Source: Halobacteriovoraceae bacterium (GTDB lineage Bacteria > Bdellovibrionota > Bacteriovoracia > Bacteriovoracales > Bacteriovoracaceae). From it: a stretch of DNA of 64,000 bases. Below, one piece after another: positions 47,835 through 64,000 of this stretch; the first letter of the stretch is position 1, and each line of letters begins with the position of its first letter. A program made the position numbers and the translations under genes. Below the pieces are notes generated by a model. That model was not told where the DNA came from. It worked only from the letters and a program-made list of their open reading frames with translations, and ran no database searches. The DNA is taken from the NCBI GenBank assembly GCA_963719505.1, contig CAVRCF010000001.1:1120001-1184000 (forward strand). The letters are read 5' to 3'.

Positions 47835-47911
<77 letters not shown>

Positions 47912-48009
47912 TTTTAAGTCATTTCAAGTACTTGCAATCATTATGTTTTAAGCCCTAAAGTCGAACCCGTAAAGGTTCGATAAACCTATGAGCTTAAAAT
48001 GAGGTTTTT

Positions 48010-49251
48010 ATGCAAGTGAGAAAAGTAAAAAACAGTGATGGGTCTGTGCGTTATCGGTACAGGTACTATGAGAAAGGTAAATTAAAGTCTGTTCTCAACA
48101 GTGACCTCCCTTATCATCCAAAAACTGATGAACAAGCAGAAGTACTAAGGAAGAGATTAGAGTCAACCTATGAGGCTGCCAAGTTAGAAACGAAGAGCCA
48201 AGAAGAATGGCACGAGAAATACTACAGCTATAACTCCCTATTTGAGACTTTCGCAAAGTACCGCAAAAAAAAAGCTAAGAACTCCTATAAAGACAAGCTT
48301 TCATATTTTAGAAACTATGTTCTTCTCTACTTTTTAGAAATCCAAAAGCTTGAGAATCTTGAGACCTGGAAAGAAAGGCGGTACGACTTCGTATTGTGGC
48401 TAAGAGAAAGAGATAAGATGCGAGGAGAAGGTAAATTAGCTTCTCAGACTATCAATCATATAATCACAGAGTTTAATGTATTTATTGATTTAATGGCTCA
48501 GACAGGCAAAATAGAAGCTCCTTTTACTATAAATTTACTGCACAAGGATGAACTCAACAAAAGAGGAGCTGAGGCGGTCCTTTCCGATGAAGAAAGTGAA
48601 CTTCTTTTAGAGGAGCTAGCAAAATTTGATGTAAAAAGCTCTGAAATCTTCAGGGTGCTTCTAAATACAGGTATGAGATACAACGAATTGTTAAGCCTTG
48701 AGAGATCTAGTATTAAAAAGGGTGAAATCCCCGAAAAATCACTGACCAAAGCACTCAACTACGGAATGGCTAATAAAACAATGTATTGTTATATTGTTCT
48801 AAGCTCTCAAATAGATAAATCCACAGGTAAAAGAAAGCCTCTTAAGTCAAAGAAGCAAATCTCTATCGCTGACTCAAGGTTTGTTCCTATTTATGATAAA
48901 GAAACATTCAATATTTTAGTTAGGGCCTTAAAAGAATCTAAAGCTAAAGAAGAAGAAACTTTATTTCACTACTTTTACAAGTATTCTCGATTAAATAGAG
49001 CTTTGAAGAAAGCTTATGATCAAATTGGTCAGTACACAAAAAAGTATTCTTATAAGTCTTCTCACTCTGCAAGGCACACGTATGCTACTTATTTATCTCA
49101 AATTGATCCATCATCTTATTTAGCGACGACTATCTTAGGGCATAACTATCAAACATCGGCTCGGTATAATCACACTCACGCAATATTAATGAAAAAGCTA
49201 ATTAATGAAGCTAATACGGTTGATATAGATGACTGGGAAGAAGTTGCATGA
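48010..49251 (+). CDS. Tyrosine recombinase/integrase
   Basis: NTGMRYNEL (Arg), HSARH (HxxR), LGH, TSARY (Tyr); adjacent to tRNA. Confidence 0.92.
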   Translation: MQVRKVKNSDGSVRYRYRYYEKGKLKSVLNSDLPYHPKTDEQAEVLRKRLESTYEAAKLETKSQEEWHEKYYSYNSLFETFAKYRKKKAKNSYKDKLSYFRNYVLLYFLEIQKLENLETWKERRYDFVLWLRERDKMRGEGKLASQTINHIITEFNVFIDLMAQTGKIEAPFTINLLHKDELNKRGAEAVLSDEESELLLEELAKFDVKSSEIFRVLLNTGMRYNELLSLERSSIKKGEIPEKSLTKALNYGMANKTMYCYIVLSSQIDKSTGKRKPLKSKKQISIADSRFVPIYDKETFNILVRALKESKAKEEETLFHYFYKYSRLNRALKKAYDQIGQYTKKYSYKSSHSARHTYATYLSQIDPSSYLATTILGHNYQTSARYNHTHAILMKKLINEANTVDIDDWEEVA

Positions 49252-51101: not shown

Positions 51102-51737
51102 TTAGTACGGCGATCGAATAGTATTCAGAAAGGAAATATACTCCAAGATAATTCTAACTTCTCTTTTAAAGGTCCTACTAAAATCGTTCAGCTTTTGAAG
51201 ATCTAAAAAGCGTTCATGATATATATCTATTGCTTTATGAAAAGCTTCTGAATGAGGTGTTCCTCCGTTCTTGAGAAGATCAATAAGTGACCTTTCCTTA
51301 CTGTACATTTTTACATTATGCTTCTTATCGATTCTGTAATCTTCTATACCGATTAACTTGGATCGACCTACTCTAGTAGCAATAAATAGGTCATTCTCGG
51401 TCAGGGTTGAGTTTCTCGGAATATCAACAGAAAGGGGGCTGGGGAATTGCTCTCCCAATCCGTGATAATATAGCGAGGAAGTACCAGACACAACAGCATT
51501 AGGGTGAGTCTTAGCTAAAGCGATTAGATTCTCGTTGGCCGGGTTATGTATATCTTCGCCTACAATATAGAGACCTCTGCTTATCTGCTTCAAAACTCCG
51601 GCCTTTTTAAAACGTGATATTTCTGTTCTATTACCTAGAAGCTTCAATAGCTCTTTAGTTGAGTACATCTCGCCTTCGTGTCGTTTTAAAAAATCAGTAT
51701 ATTTCTTAGATTTAAGCATTGTTATATTGTACACCAC
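51102..51737 (-). CDS. AbiEi-family (type IV TA) antitoxin-like protein
   Basis: LKQISRGLY wHTH, PNAVVSGTSSLYYHGL, VKMYSKERSLIDL. Confidence 0.8.
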   Translation of the reverse strand: MVYNITMLKSKKYTDFLKRHEGEMYSTKELLKLLGNRTEISRFKKAGVLKQISRGLYIVGEDIHNPANENLIALAKTHPNAVVSGTSSLYYHGLGEQFPSPLSVDIPRNSTLTENDLFIATRVGRSKLIGIEDYRIDKKHNVKMYSKERSLIDLLKNGGTPHSEAFHKAIDIYHERFLDLQKLNDFSRTFKREVRIILEYISFLNTIRSPY

Positions 51738-51993
51738 TTATTGTATTATTGGTATAGAATGTAACAAAGCCAAAGAAGAAAAGGGATATATCACCACAAG
51801 TGATTGATTTTACTCGGTTTCTCATACCAACATCCCTTAACCACTATACCGATGGTTTTTCAAAAAATTGCAGATATATCGAAAATAGCCTATAATGAGC
51901 CATATAGTGCATCTTGTAACAAGCTGATCACTTACTTGCGTTTATGCTTACGATAGCTTGGCGAGGCTAATAAGGTATTATTAGAGGATATTT

Positions 51994-52692
51994 ATGAAGA
52001 CATATACAATTAGAGATTATGAGTTCGAAGAAGGGCTCTATAAGGCAGATTTCCTTAGAGTTGTCTTAAACGGTGGTCAGGATATAAAAGAAGGTACTGA
52101 TGAGTACAAAGAGCTTATTAAGAATGGGATGAACCTTCACAGAGCAGTTGGTCAGCATAGCGATTATCTACACAAACTTAGAAGAGGTTTTTACTATATC
52201 GGTCCCAAGAATAAAGCTCAGAGAAAAACATTTGATTGGGAGATCATCCACGAGTTTTATCCAGATTTTGTTGTTTCTAGAATCCATGCTTTATATCTCT
52301 GAAAGCTCATTGATAAAGAAGATATTGATCAAGATTCAATTTCTCTAGACTATTCCAGTGAATCGAAAAGAAATACGGGTAAAGAGTTAGATATCAAGTT
52401 GTTAGTTGATGAGCGCTTTAAGCCATACATGTACGACATATATAAATTCAAAAATGGAGCCCAGGTTAAGTGCTACACAAAAGAGAGAGCTCTAATTGAT
52501 GCATTTCTAATAGGGAATAAAGACAATCGAAATATCTACTTTAAGGCTATCAGTCGCTATTTCAAGTCAGAAGGCTTCTCTCCTGAGGTTCTCGAACGGT
52601 TTTCTAAGCTTAAGAAAGTCTTTAAGAGAGAATGCAAGGATATCATTGGCAAATTAGAGCATTTAAACTTTCTGAAGAAGAATAAGCTCTAA
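51994..52692 (+). pseudogene. Second AbiEi-like gene interrupted by one in-frame TGA (52300-52302)
   Basis: ORFs 51994-52302 and 52399-52692 share a frame, with 32 open codons between them; LHKLRRGFY, PDFVVSRIHALYL*KL, VKCYTKERALID. Confidence 0.7.
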
Positions 52693-57397: not shown

Positions 57398-57868
57398 ATG
57401 CATCTTAATAAATTAATATCAGCACAACGATTAGCGGCATCAGAGCAAAATAGCTTTCCGGCTACAGTATCTCCTAAGGCTGATTACGTAATTAAATTTT
57501 TGTTTGCTGTTTTGCTATATCCTCTTTATTTACTATTCAAAGTTAAAGAGAGTATTTTAAATTCTTTTAAAAATAGAAGAACCACCAAGGTATGGGATGA
57601 CGAAGATCAAGAGTTTAAAAACACTCAAGCCGCCAGTGAAACTATCGCCTACGATACAAACCTTCTTCATAGCATAAGAATTATCTTTTCTTCTTTTATG
57701 ATGATTGATGATGATAACAAAGAAAGAAGGTTTTATCACCAATACTACAACGTCACCGAGCTAATCGCTTATGTATCATCACTATATAGACATGTGGACT
57801 ATATTTTACTTTGCGTGTTTTATACAGGGTTCTTGGTAAGATTCATGAAATTCGTATTGGAGTCGTAA
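57398..57868 (+). CDS. Membrane protein
   Basis: SD AGGAGG; two hydrophobic segments; TAATG coupling to the next gene. Confidence 0.7.
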   Translation: MHLNKLISAQRLAASEQNSFPATVSPKADYVIKFLFAVLLYPLYLLFKVKESILNSFKNRRTTKVWDDEDQEFKNTQAASETIAYDTNLLHSIRIIFSSFMMIDDDNKERRFYHQYYNVTELIAYVSSLYRHVDYILLCVFYTGFLVRFMKFVLES

Positions 57869-60465
57869 TGGAAGATAAATATATGTATTTAATTATTGCC
57901 GTTTGCCTTTTATTTGTAATCCCGGTAATAAAGTTACTTGGTTGGCTTTTAAGTAAGATTATTCGTGTTAATCCAATTCATGATAAGAATTATTATGACA
58001 AGATTAATAGAGAGAATAATAACGGGGGAGAGACTCCATATGGGGAGTTACTTACCTTAAGAGATCTTACTGTTATACAAAAGACTCGAAAGGTTTATAA
58101 CTATACAGATAATCTTGGATACCAAAGAAGAGAAGAGAGGGAGATTGAAGAGACTATTTATCCATCTGTTAAGAAGATAAAAAATGGTGTCCAAATCCAT
58201 TTCAGCGAAGAGTTAAGGAATACTGAGTTTACAAAAGATAGCTATACTCGATATATCGCTGATGTTTTTAACCAGAATTCTGTTACTGAGACTAAGAAGC
58301 TCCTAATGGTGAGAACTCCAAATCCATATATTGTTAATTACTTCCAAGTACATCCAGTTAATTACATGTTTAAGACGCCAATTGATGAGGATAGTGAGTT
58401 TAAAGCCAAACTCGATAAAGTATTAGATAAAGACAGCGCAGAACTTCTATTTGGAGAACCTCAAGTTGAATTAAACGTTCCGGATCAGATAGTTTGGCCA
58501 TTAACAGCTTCTCCTCATGTATTAGTTGCTGGTCAGACAAGATCCGGTAAGACTAAGACTATACTTAGTTTTATAACTCAAATTGCTACTGTCTATCCAG
58601 AGTCTAAATTTTTCTTCGCTGATGGTAAGAGTTCACCTGACTATGATCATTCTGCGGAATTTTTATCATCTCTACCTGTAGCAAAACCCCACCATAGTGA
58701 AGATCCATTAGTGAATCTCGCTTACATGGTTGATAAGGTGTGGGCAGAATATGAGAATCGTAAGAGATTATTTGAAGAACTAGCAGTTAAAGGAAATTCA
58801 TGTAGTACCTATATTGAGTATAATAATTATGTAGATGAAAAGCTCCCTCGTGTGTTTTTATTTATTGATGAATTTGCAGCGTTTTGTTTACTTGCCCCAG
58901 ATAAGGTAGCCTCTCTATTAACAGTCAAAGGTACTCTATTTAACAAGATTAGAAGATTGCTCGCAGAATCGGCTTCATATGGGTTTAGTATTATAATAGC
59001 TTCTCAAAGGGTACAAAATACGGATTTCCCAACTGCAATTCGTGATAATCTAACTACGTGGCTTATCCATTCAGTAAATGAGAAAGCTGCTGAATTTCTT
59101 GATCTTAAAGGGAAGGTGGGGAAACTTAAGCCTGGAGCGTTCATATTGAAGATACAAGGTTTAAGGTGTGAAAACTCTGGCGAAGCTAATATCGAATCAA
59201 GATTGCCTTATGTCGGTAACGAGCCTCAAAAGGTTAAGACCTTAAAGAAGGATATAGTTAAAGAATCTTTTGATGAAGATTACATTTATACTACTGGACT
59301 TGATACTGATTATTCCAAGCTTCCTCCTAATTCATTAAAGAAATATGTAAAGAACCTATTTTGTGTAAGAGAAGGTTTTGAAGTTATCAAGAATGAAGAT
59401 GCTGAACATGATCACCTTTCTCTGTTTGTTAAGAAAGGTAATAAGCAATATGCAATTGGTTTCGTTGAAGTAGATGAGCTTATAGATGAAACATTCTATA
59501 CTCGTTTAAATCGATTTCTTTCAGATGAAGAGAAGCTAATGCAGAAGATTTTTTTTGTAAGAGGTAATATTACCTCAAAAGCTAAAGAAACAAATATCTC
59601 TGAACTAGTTGATATGAACGGTGATATCGCCCTAATACAGCAGGATTATGTGCGTAGGCTTAAGAAGGCTAAGAAGCTGTATGATGATGGGGATAGTGAA
59701 GAGATCTTCTCTGCATTACTTGTTGGTATCAAAGCAGATGAGAAGAAAGAAGCTCTTTTAATCGACAAGAAGGATGCTGAGCTAGGAAGTGTTGAGATCT
59801 CTATTAACGAATTAGAAAGGATCAATAATCTCTCAGGATCTTCTGATGCCCAAAAGATAGCTAAAGGGGAGCAGTTTGAGAGATTCGTTCACGCTCTATT
59901 TAGACAAATTGGTTGGACTACATACACCCCAGAACTGCTATTCGCTAAGAGGATCTATAAAAGACCTGGCGATGTTGGGGATTTAGGGCTGGATATGTTA
60001 TTAGCTAAAACAGATACGGATCTCAGAGAACTATCGCAAGAAGAAGCTGATAATAGAGTTGCTGTACAGATCAAGAATTGGAACTCAGCAATTCCGGCAA
60101 AGGTTCTTGGTGAAGTATTGAGATCCTACCACAATTTTAAATGTCTCAAGAATGGAACTCCTATCAAAAAAGGGATGGTTGTCTCAACGTCCACATACAC
60201 CCAATATACAAAGTTAGAGGCTTCAAATCAAGGAATAGAGCTCATAGGATACAATGACCTAAGAAAGCTCGTTATAGACGCTGTGAGGGACGCTCAGAGC
60301 GCAGGAGAAGCACATCAGGCTATCCCTTTTGCTGAGATGGATAGAGATGAGCAAATCCTTCATTTAAACGAGCAAGGACTAAGTTTGAGAGATATCGCTA
60401 CTAGAGTAGGGGTTAAGTCTCCATCTACTGTTAGGAACGTATTGAAAAAAGCGGAGGCTGCATGA
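57868..60465 (+). CDS. TM + FtsK/SpoIIIE ATPase + Mrr-like restriction endonuclease + C-terminal HTH fusion
   Basis: PHVLVAGQTRSGKT, ADGK, FIDEFA, IIASQR; GEQFERFVHALF..GW, GDLGLD, AVQIK, GMVVSTSTYT, GIELIG; GLSLRDIATRVGVKSPSTVRNVL. Confidence 0.85.
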   Translation: MEDKYMYLIIAVCLLFVIPVIKLLGWLLSKIIRVNPIHDKNYYDKINRENNNGGETPYGELLTLRDLTVIQKTRKVYNYTDNLGYQRREEREIEETIYPSVKKIKNGVQIHFSEELRNTEFTKDSYTRYIADVFNQNSVTETKKLLMVRTPNPYIVNYFQVHPVNYMFKTPIDEDSEFKAKLDKVLDKDSAELLFGEPQVELNVPDQIVWPLTASPHVLVAGQTRSGKTKTILSFITQIATVYPESKFFFADGKSSPDYDHSAEFLSSLPVAKPHHSEDPLVNLAYMVDKVWAEYENRKRLFEELAVKGNSCSTYIEYNNYVDEKLPRVFLFIDEFAAFCLLAPDKVASLLTVKGTLFNKIRRLLAESASYGFSIIIASQRVQNTDFPTAIRDNLTTWLIHSVNEKAAEFLDLKGKVGKLKPGAFILKIQGLRCENSGEANIESRLPYVGNEPQKVKTLKKDIVKESFDEDYIYTTGLDTDYSKLPPNSLKKYVKNLFCVREGFEVIKNEDAEHDHLSLFVKKGNKQYAIGFVEVDELIDETFYTRLNRFLSDEEKLMQKIFFVRGNITSKAKETNISELVDMNGDIALIQQDYVRRLKKAKKLYDDGDSEEIFSALLVGIKADEKKEALLIDKKDAELGSVEISINELERINNLSGSSDAQKIAKGEQFERFVHALFRQIGWTTYTPELLFAKRIYKRPGDVGDLGLDMLLAKTDTDLRELSQEEADNRVAVQIKNWNSAIPAKVLGEVLRSYHNFKCLKNGTPIKKGMVVSTSTYTQYTKLEASNQGIELIGYNDLRKLVIDAVRDAQSAGEAHQAIPFAEMDRDEQILHLNEQGLSLRDIATRVGVKSPSTVRNVLKKAEAA

Positions 60466-60875
60466 ACAAATCAGATATAATTGAGAAGATCGAAACTCTT
60501 AAGAGTATGCCTGTTTTTAAGAAAAGGTTCTTGTCTAAAGATGGGTATCTAATTCCCATTAGGCTCACAATCATCAAATCGAACAAGATTAATGCCTGCG
60601 TATACAAACAAGGATCAAGAAGGGATGTCGCCAATATGAACGTTAATTCGTCATATTTTGGTTTAACTGAGAATCAGAAACTTTTCATTATAGCGCATGA
60701 GATGACCCATATTTTACATAGGGACTATTCTTTCATAGGGGCTCATTTACCTATAGTTTCTCGCATTAAAGAGAAAAGGGCAGATATAACAGCCGCCAAA
60801 GTATGTCGAGATATGGGTATTGATATGGGTGAAATTATAGAACTATTTAAGGGGCCACAAAAGAGGAATATTTAG
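60462..60875 (+). CDS. HEXXH zinc-metallopeptidase-like protein (M48/ImmA-like)
   Basis: INAC, FIIAHEMTH, EKRAD; ATGA overlap with the FtsK fusion. Confidence 0.75.
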   Translation: MNKSDIIEKIETLKSMPVFKKRFLSKDGYLIPIRLTIIKSNKINACVYKQGSRRDVANMNVNSSYFGLTENQKLFIIAHEMTHILHRDYSFIGAHLPIVSRIKEKRADITAAKVCRDMGIDMGEIIELFKGPQKRNI

Positions 60876-60939: not shown

Positions 60940-61124
60940 GTGTTCATTCAAGTGTCCATTTAGCTGTTCATATCTGTCCAATCCAGATTGAACGGCCGTT
61001 CATTTCAAATTCTAAATTGCTGTAATTACATGAGAATGAACACTTAACAGGTGAAATGAACAGGTTTCAGAGAATATTTGTGTGTGACGGAATATATTGA
61101 TAATTATCGATATATTTTGAACAG
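60940..61124. repeat. Array of TGTYCA boxes, direct then inverted, around a palindrome
   Basis: TGTYCA at 60941, 60953, 60965 and 60975; palindrome TGAACGGCCGTTCA 60989-61002; inverted TGAACA near 61037, 61057 and 61118. Confidence 0.6.
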
Positions 61125-61296
61125 CAGATGTTGGATGAGGGAGAGGAGAGCCTCATATATTAAGCCCTTAGATTATATACATATAAATATTATTTAATTA
61201 GTTGTTTAGTTAGTTGCTTAATGAGCTTACGTAGATCACTGACTCCTATGATCTTTATGTAAGCTCACTAACTTCATACTTACACAACCTTTTGGA

Positions 61297-61893
61297 CTAT
61301 CTTGATTTATCTAGATCAACTCTGTATTCAGTCCCTAGTTTGCCTTCGATCTCGTGATAAGTTAGCACAAAATCTTTTGTCATTATGACCTCTCCAGCTT
61401 GGATTACTTTAGGATTATTAAATCCCTCATTTATAGCTTTCTCTAGTTCTAAAGCATTCTTCCTCTTAACCTTATTGCGCTTCATCCCAAGGCAGTGAAA
61501 ACCAGAACAATCCCATTTCATAAGAGCTTTTTTAGCTTGTTGTTTAAGTGCTTCAACATCAGAAGAATTGTCTATGTAAAGAGAATAGTCATCCAAGGTT
61601 TTATATTCAATATGTTTCACATCTTTATCATGGGTGTAGGTAACTTTCACATTGAATTTCTTTGTTATAACTTCTAACCCAGATCTGATAATTTTGATCT
61701 CCTCTTTGCCTACTTGATCAAGAACTTCTATTTTGTGATTGAGAGTCGTTCTATTTTCATTGTTTATTGTCTCGTAATATCTATCTCTGATCTTCTCATT
61801 TAATGAGTTGCTTACTTCCTCTGGTAGAGAAGAGGTACAACTAGCAAAAAATAGAATTGATATTACACTAAGTAGGTTTCCGATTTTGATCAT
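61297..61893 (-). CDS. Lipoprotein, hypothetical
   Basis: Lipobox FASC; SD AAGGAG; extended -10 TGTGCTATAAT at 61937-61947. Confidence 0.75.
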   Translation of the reverse strand: MIKIGNLLSVISILFFASCTSSLPEEVSNSLNEKIRDRYYETINNENRTTLNHKIEVLDQVGKEEIKIIRSGLEVITKKFNVKVTYTHDKDVKHIEYKTLDDYSLYIDNSSDVEALKQQAKKALMKWDCSGFHCLGMKRNKVKRKNALELEKAINEGFNNPKVIQAGEVIMTKDFVLTYHEIEGKLGTEYRVDLDKSR

Positions 61894-62013
61894 TTATTCT
61901 CCTTTTTGGTTTCGTTATGAAGTGTTGCCTTTTAGTATTATAGCACAGTATGTAACGATGCGTTAGTGTTAATTTAAAATGGTTCTAGTTTCATTATTTG
62001 GAGATAATCAATG

Positions 62014-62288
62014 AAAAGCGACCACCAATAAATTTTATATAAAAAAGCGACCACCAATAAATTTTATATAAAAAAGCGACCACCATTAAATTGTTTAAAA
62101 GCGACCACCTCAAGTGTTTGAAATATCGATCAGGTGATCCATTTTAAAAAGCGACCACTAGTTTTGCTAAGTATTTGATACTACATAAAAGCGACCACCT
62201 TTAATTGGATCTGGTCCGAAAAAAGGACGTAAATAGCCGTAAATATGCTGGATTAGGTGGTCTCACTAATAATTAATAAAAGCGACCA
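62014..62288 (+). repeat. Iteron-like array of AAAAGCGACCAC(C) direct repeats
   Basis: Copies at 62014, 62043, 62072, 62097, 62147, 62187 and 62278 (last one 11 nt); inverted variant 62255-62264; first two units form a perfect 29-bp tandem. Confidence 0.9.
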
Positions 62289-62304
62289 TTAAGAAGAAAT
62301 CTTA

Positions 62305-62829
62305 TTAGAATCTTGGGGGTGGAGAACAAAGAAGTTTTCTTTCCTGATTATCTCCAACACATTCTTTTACATATTTATCGTTATGAAGATTTGGTGTTCT
62401 AGAGCAGTCCCACTCTTGAAGTTGTTTGAAAGCGTAACTTTCATCCAATTTCCAAAAAGTCGTATGAACAGCAAGAGAATATTCGCTCTGATTTTTTTCT
62501 ATTACATAAGTAAACATCTGTTTCTTTGGGTCCACTTTTGTGATCTTATAGAACAATCCTCTTTTTTGATCGATCAAACATTTTCCTACGCTGATTTGAT
62601 TCCACTTCAACATGTCATAAGTATTCTGATACGGTCTATTTGGAAGCTTGTCACCGTCAGTTAGTTTAACTGGGGCGACTCTCGCTTTTTGCTCTTCACT
62701 AGCTCCTAAGAGCGCTGAACCTTCTGGCATATTAACAACTGAAATTTCTGTACACTTACCATCTCGACAAACAATTTCACCGAAAGCAATTGTAGAAGTA
62801 AGTAAGCTAATTAAAATTAATAGTCTCAT
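62305..62829 (-). CDS. Secreted Cys-rich hypothetical protein
   Basis: Signal peptide; six Cys; SD AAGGAG. Confidence 0.7.
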   Translation of the reverse strand: MRLLILISLLTSTIAFGEIVCRDGKCTEISVVNMPEGSALLGASEEQKARVAPVKLTDGDKLPNRPYQNTYDMLKWNQISVGKCLIDQKRGLFYKITKVDPKKQMFTYVIEKNQSEYSLAVHTTFWKLDESYAFKQLQEWDCSRTPNLHNDKYVKECVGDNQERKLLCSPPPRF

Positions 62830-62904
62830 TTGATCTCCTTGTTTCTAGTATATCACAGAAATGTTACAATATGCGTAGTTTTATGTGTTTTTAGCAGTTT
62901 GTAA

Positions 62905-63459
62905 CTAAGCTACAGAACGTTGCCATTCCTCATCTTCGTCATCAAAGTGAGAATCAAGTAAAGTCCCTCTGTAAAAAAGCTCAGGAAAAGCATCCACAAC
63001 GGAATCGATCTCCTCAATTGTAGTGTCTAGGGCAATGATCATGTGATTCAAATCCATTTCAGTCTGTAGTAGCTGGAAAATTTGTCTTTGTTTCGAATTC
63101 AAACGACTAAGGCCTTCTACTGGTATCTCGACAGCTACATCTTTAAACTGTACTGAAGAGAGCGGTGGAACTATCCCTGTTGTTATTGCTATCCTGGAAT
63201 CCCAATCAATGATTCTTTTTATAGCTTCTTCATTAATTAAACTGTTAATAGAAGCGGTGATATGAGTTTCGAGATCAGATTCTTCCGAATCCCAAGTTCT
63301 CAAGCCTAGCCAAATAGCGATATTTCCTAATTGTGAAACTTCTTCTCGATAGAAAGAGTCCTCAATCATAATTGAGTCAGCAATTTTCTGAATCAACGGT
63401 CTAAATTTAGCTAATTGGTTTTTAAAAGTCTCTTTTTCGCTTTTCTTTGAGTTTTTCAC
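62905..63459 (-). CDS. Sigma-70-family sigma-factor-like protein
   Basis: Region 2-like FRPLIQKIA...EEVSQLGNIAIWLGLRTWD...LETHITASI; region 4-like LSRLNSKQRQIFQL. Confidence 0.6.
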   Translation of the reverse strand: MKNSKKSEKETFKNQLAKFRPLIQKIADSIMIEDSFYREEVSQLGNIAIWLGLRTWDSEESDLETHITASINSLINEEAIKRIIDWDSRIAITTGIVPPLSSVQFKDVAVEIPVEGLSRLNSKQRQIFQLLQTEMDLNHMIIALDTTIEEIDSVVDAFPELFYRGTLLDSHFDDEDEEWQRSVA

Positions 63460-63515: not shown

Positions 63516-64000
63516 CAAGTTGAAGATCTGTTCAGAGGCTCGTACAGATGCTTCTCATATCAATATACATGCTCTGAAAGCTCCATATCGGCTTATACAG
63601 GCCTTTCAGAGGCTTTCTTTGTGTTTGGGCTTGGACTAAGGCTCTAAAAGGCTTATATATAGCTTCTAGAGATGATTTGATGTTGCTCTTTCGTTTTATG
63701 ATATTATCTCTAAATTAGAGGTAATTTTTTGGGTTGATCGGGAGAATGTTGGAGATACTCAGAAAATGCTCGTTTTTGAGCTAAGTTATTGAAAATATTC
63801 GTTGTCTTTAACATAATGATACTTATCTAATAATACACTCACTTTAATCTTATTATTACACCTCATCTCTAATTTATTATTCCTCATTTATATATCTACC
63901 ACTAAACCTTTTTTTTCAGGGATTTTCACTTTTGACGATAAATTTACGCTACTAATTTGTAGCTAGAATCTATATCGTAAAGAGCTCTCATTGTATCTAC

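Follow-up and report, generated by a model that had tools for sequence, protein, structure and literature searches.

Results

The locus

The window, by which is meant the whole stretch of 64,000 nucleotides that was analysed, contains one end of an integrated island that is bounded by a 28-bp repeat of the 3' end of tRNA-Arg(TCT) and measures 22,723 bp from att to att. An array of short direct repeats takes up most of the space between two genes of this island, both on the minus strand and both encoding exported proteins. The features that bear on the array are as follows (window coordinates).

47835 to 47914, plus strand: tRNA-Arg(TCT) with attL (47887-47914)
48010 to 49251, plus strand: tyrosine integrase, 413 aa
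52779 to 53393, minus strand: short second tyrosine recombinase, 204 aa, catalytic region only
57811 to 60465, plus strand: FtsK-like ATPase with an Mrr-type nuclease domain and a C-terminal HTH
60462 to 60875, plus strand: M48-like metallopeptidase gene; here and in the related genome G108 it is coupled to the FtsK gene
60940 to 61062: weak repeat cluster, GTTCAT/ATGAAC in mixed orientation, downstream of the M48 gene (P ~0.02)
61297 to 61893, minus strand: 198-aa exported or lipoprotein-like cargo gene, left neighbour of the array
62014 to 62289, plus strand: direct-repeat array of AAAAGCGACCAY, 7 copies
62111 to 62123, minus strand: IHF-type site with 1 mismatch, flanked by copy 4 and the inverted copy 62132-62145
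62132 to 62145, minus strand: degenerate inverted copy, 11/14 matches
62168 to 62180, minus strand: IHF-type site, perfect, between copies 5 and 6
62255 to 62268, minus strand: degenerate inverted copy, 10/14 matches, 8 of them contiguous
62305 to 62829, minus strand: 174-aa exported cargo gene, its stop 15 bp from the array
62905 to 63459, minus strand: phage-type sigma-70-like gene, 184 aa (E 0.0024, below cut-off; other score 0.96)
63944 to 64000, minus strand: 3' end of a gene modelled as winged helix plus family-A polymerase (full gene L001:3944-5170)
70610 to 70637 (window-equivalent; G000:C1:1190610-1190637): attR, the identical 28 bp

Further products of the island are an AbiEi-like protein, a phosphoesterase-like protein, an HNH nuclease, two membrane proteins and much exported cargo; the polymerase is the only recognisable replication gene. 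The island has no helicase, its sole Walker A motif being in FtsK, and among the ORFs scanned no relaxase was detected, nor any terminase, capsid, ParA or ParM gene. A sequence-only reading of this DNA had likened the array to lambda cos and to partition sites; given the absence of any such gene from the ORFs scanned, these analogies are unsupported.

The sigma-70-like gene lies 615 bp from the array and has no relative in 236 family genomes. A homologue of the 174-aa gene was found in G106 and one of the 198-aa gene in G102; neither is accompanied by an array, and a tie between the array and its neighbour genes was rejected on that ground. Upstream of the 198-aa gene is an extended -10-like motif of its own (~61936-61944), which does not overlap the array. 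The upstream regions of the two array-flanking cargo genes are alike (61930-61970 and 62843-62885) in carrying such an extended -10-like motif, and the word TGTAAC/GTTACA, which precedes both motifs, recurs near 51758, 51915 and 56430. In a scan of the region the most AT-rich 40-mer (36/40) lies near ~61170, about 850 bp from the array; it belongs to a stretch (61160-61270) that continues with TTAGTTG repeats and an inverted repeat, and that sits where plus- and minus-strand genes converge. Within 51102-52692 the AbiEi-like gene faces two short ORFs of 102 and 97 aa which, judged by eye, together resemble a split second AbiEi-like gene; no AbiEii partner was detected. Just inside attR are two adjacent paralogous ORFs (L001:9306-10206, ~32% identical) with no family match. 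Elsewhere in the assembly a run of genes that look conjugation-like by eye (L033:8000-15000; G000:C5, ~1,078,000-1,085,000) is a possible helper element; the array motif is not clustered there.

A frameshifted FtsK (both halves), a truncated polymerase and the sigma protein are recorded on a contig of 22,652 bp, and each shows 98-100% identity to its island counterpart. From the contig's base-pair total and its proteins, by which it is known, we infer that these records come from one contig, the island having been assembled apart from the chromosome; its length, set against the 22,723 bp of the island, suggests a free form of the element. The closest named homologue of FtsK comes from a Bdellovibrionales genome, and the host bacterium is probably a predator belonging to the Bdellovibrionota.

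The repeat array

Six exact copies of the 12-mer AAAAGCGACCAC lie on the plus strand, starting at 62014, 62043, 62072, 62097, 62147 and 62187, and a seventh, AAAAGCGACCAT (62278-62289), differs by one mismatch. Seven same-strand copies with start-to-start spacings of 29, 29, 25, 50, 40 and 91 bp had been reported by the sequence-only reading, and all are as claimed. The spacers are 13-79 bp long and 73% AT, against 63% genome-wide; units 1 and 2 duplicate each other exactly over 29 bp, and four of the copies extend into a looser consensus of ~20 bp. Dinucleotide shuffling of the 411-bp intergenic gap gave seven copies of any 9-mer in 0/1000 trials. Across six independent units the 12-mer is 97% identical, as compared with 32-35% for the flanking bases, a difference that fits selection on a putative binding word and not tandem-repeat decay. 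It is clear that these are clustered, conserved, element-specific direct repeats in non-coding DNA.

Measured against classical iterons, the array has neither the length (17-22 bp, the core here being 12 bp) nor the helical phase, the spacings corresponding to 2.38-8.67 turns with no integer value among them. A perfect DnaA box is absent from 60500-64200, the array having just a DnaA-like word with one mismatch, and no second element occurs at a constant distance 3' of the 12-mer across all units. GC skew across the island tracks gene direction and is uninformative.

Inverted copies and IHF-type sites

Two further copies, both degenerate, are inverted, so that the orientations are 7 versus 2. 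The single inverted variant described earlier is present at 62255-62268, but a closer second copy at 62132-62145 had been overlooked; this has 3 mismatches in 14 positions (P=0.002 by spacer shuffling, post hoc) and forms with copy 4 an inverted pair that flanks the IHF-type site at 62111-62123.

Both IHF-type sites, scored against a consensus which we take to be WATCAANNNNTTR, were recovered at the positions previously claimed for them in the 50- and 40-bp intervals, and both are on the minus strand. When the spacers were shuffled (n=20,000), at least one perfect site appeared with P=0.032, and one perfect site together with a second at no more than one mismatch with P=0.017. Since 0.68 one-mismatch sites are expected per 276 bp from the genome-wide frequency, the site at 62111-62123 is unremarkable by itself, and the statistics are modest evidence for IHF sites in the array. 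The host genome contains a gene for IHF-alpha above the model cut-off and an IHF-beta-like gene below it.

Uniqueness of the repeat word

The assembly scanned comprises 3.69 Mb and is 84% complete. Outside the array the exact 12-mer occurs once, at C5:260, within coding DNA; there is no second cluster of the motif anywhere in the assembly, and the word is absent from the att ends and from all other island promoters. A genome-wide scan of the 3.69 Mb found no other non-coding array of this kind, the only other one flagged having the period pattern of a lysine-rich coding repeat. The 8-9-mer cores of the motif are about as frequent host-wide as permuted words, with the 9-mer AAAGCGACC at ~2x. 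A host-wide motif, for which the earlier reading had proposed a genome-wide count of the 12-mer, was not borne out by this single outside copy and lack of enrichment, and on the same evidence a host Chi/KOPS motif or a regulator decoy was rejected.

A two-copy pattern of the word was matched in 4/236 family genomes, always in lysine/alanine-rich coding repeats. Elsewhere it was matched at 51 loci, of which 1 is viral, 39 come from metagenomes and 11 from a genome collection; no viral contig matched a three-copy pattern. None of the 51 pattern-matching loci from the three collections carries an island gene, and an IHF-like word falls between copies in only one; nine of the 51 have at least five copies, six of these being in ORFs and three being regular tandem repeats. 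BLAST of the intergenic gap gave no match in phages and two insignificant ones in plasmids. Thus no homologous array was found in the 236 family genomes, the three collections or by phage and plasmid BLAST.

The array region has no Rfam match at E<=1 and no terminator was called within the array. Its minus strand folds somewhat better than shuffled sequences (z -2.7; 2/100 as good) because of the inverted copies, and its plus strand is unremarkable (z -0.5). A CRISPR array or a type III antitoxin RNA array was rejected on account of the 12-bp repeats and spacers of 13-79 bp, the first two of them identical, of the lack of an Rfam match and of neighbouring genes that encode exported proteins.

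The polymerase as candidate initiator

The sequence-only reading had remarked that no Rep gene is adjacent to the array. This is true of the immediate neighbours, but 1,655 bp from the array, at 63944, is the end of a candidate replication gene, most of which lies beyond the window. In a structure model of its 408-aa product (built on 111 sequences; mean pLDDT 82), residues ~141-408 match family-A DNA polymerases and T7-like RNA polymerases (Z 13.5, rmsd 3.1-3.5, ~222 aligned). Residues 17-142 match MarR-type winged helices (Z up to 6.6, rmsd 3.4, 98 aligned), a Z of 6.6 being middling and in the range that the structure-comparison tool calls a common arrangement. No Rep-family match was found in Pfam, NCBIfam or named PHROGs, and atlas matches to the N-terminal domain were all <0.9 and none was named. 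As modelled, the protein resembles a winged helix joined to a family-A polymerase, of TV-Pol-like type.

The polymerase family is large, with 11,269 clusters at E<=0.001. Relatives occur in 235 phage records, mostly of Rheinheimera and Vibrio phages. In the records listed a genome often has two of them, and they are annotated as hypothetical. Loci were compared at 20-33% identity, several of them being short contigs. A significant repeat cluster within 5 kb was found at 2/10 other bacterial polymerase loci, lying directly downstream of the polymerase gene in G107 and consisting of two palindromes in G502; of 33 viral loci 6 were flagged and 1 was unscorable, and none has a comparable array. 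At these distances an iteron array is therefore not a general feature of the family. In G126 a polymerase island occupies the same tRNA-Arg(TCT), with an integrase that gives no BLASTP alignment to the one described here; a single AGCGACCACTA lies ~95 bp after its polymerase gene (L030:6148-6158), although 8-mer matches of this kind occur 21 times in 24 loci and chance could account for it.

The FtsK-like protein and its candidate sites

The FtsK protein has one N-terminal hydrophobic segment and a C-terminal HTH at residues ~840-884, of the short Hin/IS30-like type, and its gene comes after two membrane-protein genes. A TraB model matches it weakly (E 2e-4, far under the cut-off). These are the features predicted of a membrane-anchored FtsK-like ATPase with a C-terminal DNA-binding domain. 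The gene ends 1,549 bp, or two genes, before the array, as against 1,655 bp from array to polymerase; because these distances are about equal, position has no power to choose between the two proteins. The FtsK-fusion HTH had earlier been put forward as one candidate binder of the repeats. That preference rested on the apparent lack of a Rep gene and is weakened by a polymerase gene 1.66 kb away, but the HTH remains a rival candidate.

A GCACCA cluster follows directly on M48 in G108 (L084:1340-1420; 0/1000 shuffles), the one other FtsK-Mrr-HTH locus for which surrounding DNA could be examined, represented by its 3' part only. Together with the cluster after M48 in the island (P ~0.02), it offers a different candidate site for the FtsK HTH. 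The repeats are mixed in orientation at both FtsK-Mrr-HTH and M48 loci (60940-61062 and G108).

Arrays in sister regions

Relatives of FtsK were collected from 237 family and 401 phylum genomes, and are near- or full-length in G106, G440 and G526 and a 3' fragment in G108. An array was called where a 9-mer occurred in at least four copies within 400 bp of non-coding DNA; the rule covered 193 kb of G106, 80 kb of G526, 40 kb of G440 and the present island, the G108 fragment and three viral loci being excluded. Exactly one non-coding array was found in each of the four regions. In the G108 fragment and the three distant viral loci no 9-mer reaches four copies. The sister arrays are 3.8, ~36 and ~10 kb from the nearest FtsK gene and lie beside it in 0/3.

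In G440, which shares with the island a related integrase, short second recombinase and FtsK-nuclease, the array is directly 3' of primase and VapE-type helicase genes. This sister island (L156-L157) has primase and VapE helicase in place of the polymerase, and the comparison suggests that replication modules may be exchangeable among sister elements. In G106, which carries a homologue of the short second recombinase, the array is directly 5' of a 593-aa ORF (weak TrfA match, E 0.011, under cut-off) and DnaB. The G106 element (G106:C104; L076-L083, L026, L027) is at least 100 kb long and shares five gene families with the island, and its iteron-rich origin-like region (106550-107250) precedes the Rep-like ORF and DnaB. 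The G526 array has a 21-22-bp period and is 5' of a gene without an assigned family (model pLDDT 40). Each sister element has its own repeat word. Judged by eye, the FtsK proteins of G106, G440 and G526 appear to be without a C-terminal HTH, so the sister arrays cannot exclude an HTH-specific site here. It is from these three cases that we infer the probable function of the array.

Discussion

A proposed origin read by the polymerase

That the array is the cis-acting hub of the element, as the sequence-only reading had it, holds to the extent that a protein-binding cis site is supported: the core is conserved where the spacers have diverged, the word is unique in the genome, the array sits in a mobile island and the host encodes IHF. 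Most likely the array marks the place at which the polymerase would bind to start copying of the island. That it is the island's own iteron-type replication origin, read by the winged helix of the polymerase, we put somewhat short of an even chance. An origin is favoured over a loading site for FtsK because the island encodes a polymerase and because the sister arrays are not beside FtsK. More doubtful is a fuller version, in which the array would be the cognate origin of a one-protein initiator whose winged helix reads the repeats and whose fused polymerase domain primes, with the island perhaps also transferring itself by means of a relaxase-free FtsK-nuclease pump.

Under the origin reading, the integrase would first excise the island and the winged-helix domain of the polymerase would bind the 12-mers. 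Host IHF, bending the DNA at 62111 and 62168, could join separated and oppositely oriented sites, and the AT-rich spacers of the array would then open. The polymerase domain would make a primer and perhaps extend it, and the host would supply the helicase. In such an arrangement the sigma gene and the 174-aa cargo gene would sit between the origin and the gene for its initiator. Against it stand the presence of a repeat cluster at only 2/10 other polymerase islands, the out-of-phase spacing, the lack of a perfect DnaA box and the lack of a helicase. Because the repeats are too short for classical iterons and out of helical phase, and there is no perfect DnaA box, the array would at best act like an iteron origin and is not classed as one.

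Alternative readings

The chief alternative, which we consider unlikely, is a TraB/clt-like transfer locus, at which the HTH of FtsK-Mrr would bind the polarised 12-mers, the nuclease would cut and the ATPase would pump the excised island into another cell. As described in the available text of two reports, clt loci carry several 7-9-bp direct repeats bound by TraB or TraA (PMC3583192, PMC4170104). Here 7/9 copies run in the same direction, no relaxase was detected in the island, and the FtsK protein has a hydrophobic N-terminal segment, a C-terminal HTH, a gene placed after two membrane-protein genes and a weak match to TraB (E 2e-4, far under cut-off). However, none of the three sister regions has its single array next to FtsK, G108 is without a long array and has its short GCACCA cluster after M48, and the island's own short cluster after M48 may be the HTH site instead. 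The HTH is, further, Hin/IS30-like and not the winged helix reported for TraB. A decidedly unlikely case is an orphan or mimic origin, whose module has been lost or replaced, or which copies the site of a helper element outside the assembly. The swapping of primase-helicase, Rep-DnaB and polymerase modules among sister elements, each with its own repeat word, would allow for this, as would the absence of arrays from most polymerase islands and a genome that is 84% complete; but a decaying relic would not be expected to show near-perfect conservation of the core or a recent duplication of units 1 and 2, no second motif cluster exists in the assembly and 0/51 collection loci carry an island gene.

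We see a small chance that the repeats are operators or promoter elements, read by the sigma-like factor, the AbiEi-like protein or another regulator and controlling the 198-aa gene or transcription through the region. A sigma-70-like gene is 615 bp away, IHF acts also at promoters, and two-copy versions of the word are found upstream of genes on unrelated contigs. Yet the -10-like motif of the 198-aa gene (~61936-61944) is outside the array, homologues of both neighbour genes (one each) are without an array, no second element keeps a fixed distance across the units and the word is at no other island promoter. Recombination complexes typically involve repeats with IHF sites among them, and with a second recombinase present the array might be its accessory (arm-type) region, for example a multimer-resolution site; we think this very improbable, since the recombinase gene is 8.6 kb distant and its product appears to have no arm-binding domain, the arrays of G440 and G106 adjoin replication genes although homologues of the recombinase are present there, and the 12-mer is absent at the att ends. 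We give as little credence to an RNA-level element (a 3' UTR of the 174-aa gene, a terminator stack or a protein sponge), or to a neutral slippage repeat or assembly artefact. The identity of units 1 and 2 and the somewhat better-than-shuffled fold of the minus strand (z -2.7) would suit these, but that fold is accounted for by the inverted copies, the plus strand has z -0.5, there is neither an Rfam match at E<=1 nor a called terminator, and the conservation of core over flank speaks against neutrality.

Comparison with known systems

Iteron origins of theta plasmids (RK2, P1, F, R6K, pSC101) have 2-7 direct repeats, and IHF acts there, according to the available text of PMC4980987. The array is like them in its direct repeats, AT-rich surroundings and IHF-type sites, and in the presence of a winged-helix candidate initiator on the element. 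It is unlike them in its 12-bp core (theirs is 17-22 bp), its irregular, out-of-phase spacing and the want of a perfect DnaA box; and in place of a theta-plasmid Rep the candidate initiator combines a single winged helix with a polymerase fold and gives no Rep-family match.

As far as the available text of PMC9371898 goes, iterons of SaPIs and PICIs are 5-6 bp long, lie directly downstream of the helicase gene and stand in roughly equal numbers on either side of an AT-rich centre. Short repeats in both orientations, an integrative island and, as there, a winged helix fused to a replication enzyme are points of likeness. In contrast, the present repeats are 12 bp with an orientation of 7 versus 2, are 1.66 kb from the polymerase gene, and are in an island without a helicase; the SaPI/PICI origin layout is met in the sister G440 and not in this island. 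The PLE origin of Vibrio cholerae is several genes from repA (PMC7145576, available text). It too has non-coding repeats at that remove from the initiator, in an element with no helicase of its own (PMC7145576, same text). Unlike the island polymerase, PLE RepA is of RepA_N type and needs the phage ICP1 (PMC7145576, in the same text); none such is known for the present island.

In 2008 it was suggested that TV-Pols of a subset with an N-terminal domain and a linked integrase prime and copy the elements that carry them (PMC2579912, available text). Like the TV-Pol and CCPol-MP enzymes of the accounts available (PMC2579912, PMC10061031, PMC7581432), the island protein consists of a minimal family-A polymerase preceded by an N-terminal domain, and a lambda-type integrase is linked to it, a likeness drawn apart from any comparison of family profiles. 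The TV-Pol N-terminal domain is described, in the text available, as all-helical and uncharacterised, whereas that of the island is modelled as a winged helix. No cognate origin for a TV-Pol-like enzyme was found described in the literature searched, which was mostly non-subscription and without supplements. If the polymerase reads the array, the two would make a defined enzyme-and-site pair for a very large and little-studied polymerase family.

With the TraB/clt system of Streptomyces, in the available text of PMC4170104 and PMC3583192, the island has in common a membrane-anchored FtsK-like protein with a C-terminal DNA-binding domain, polarised direct repeats and no detected relaxase. It differs in its Gram-negative host (inferred), in the added Mrr nuclease and in having 12-bp repeats with IHF-type sites. 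The array is 1.5 kb and two genes from FtsK, where the clt of pWTY27 overlaps traA and that of pIJ101 is near korB in those accounts. TraB-like transfer in a Gram-negative lineage was not found in the same body of mostly non-subscription literature without supplements, and is what would follow if FtsK reads the array.

The architecture is thus of a known kind, and what is new, within the literature searched, is the sequence and its pairing with a winged-helix/family-A polymerase or with an FtsK-nuclease-HTH protein. Since repeats with IHF sites are ordinary in mobile elements, the array alone is not surprising; its value is in its partners, one a candidate replication protein and the other a relaxase-free FtsK-nuclease-HTH protein. 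Because the 12-bp word is sharply defined and unique to the island, which of the two reads it could be tested cheaply, and a working replicon made from the island would be a genetic tool for predatory bacteria.
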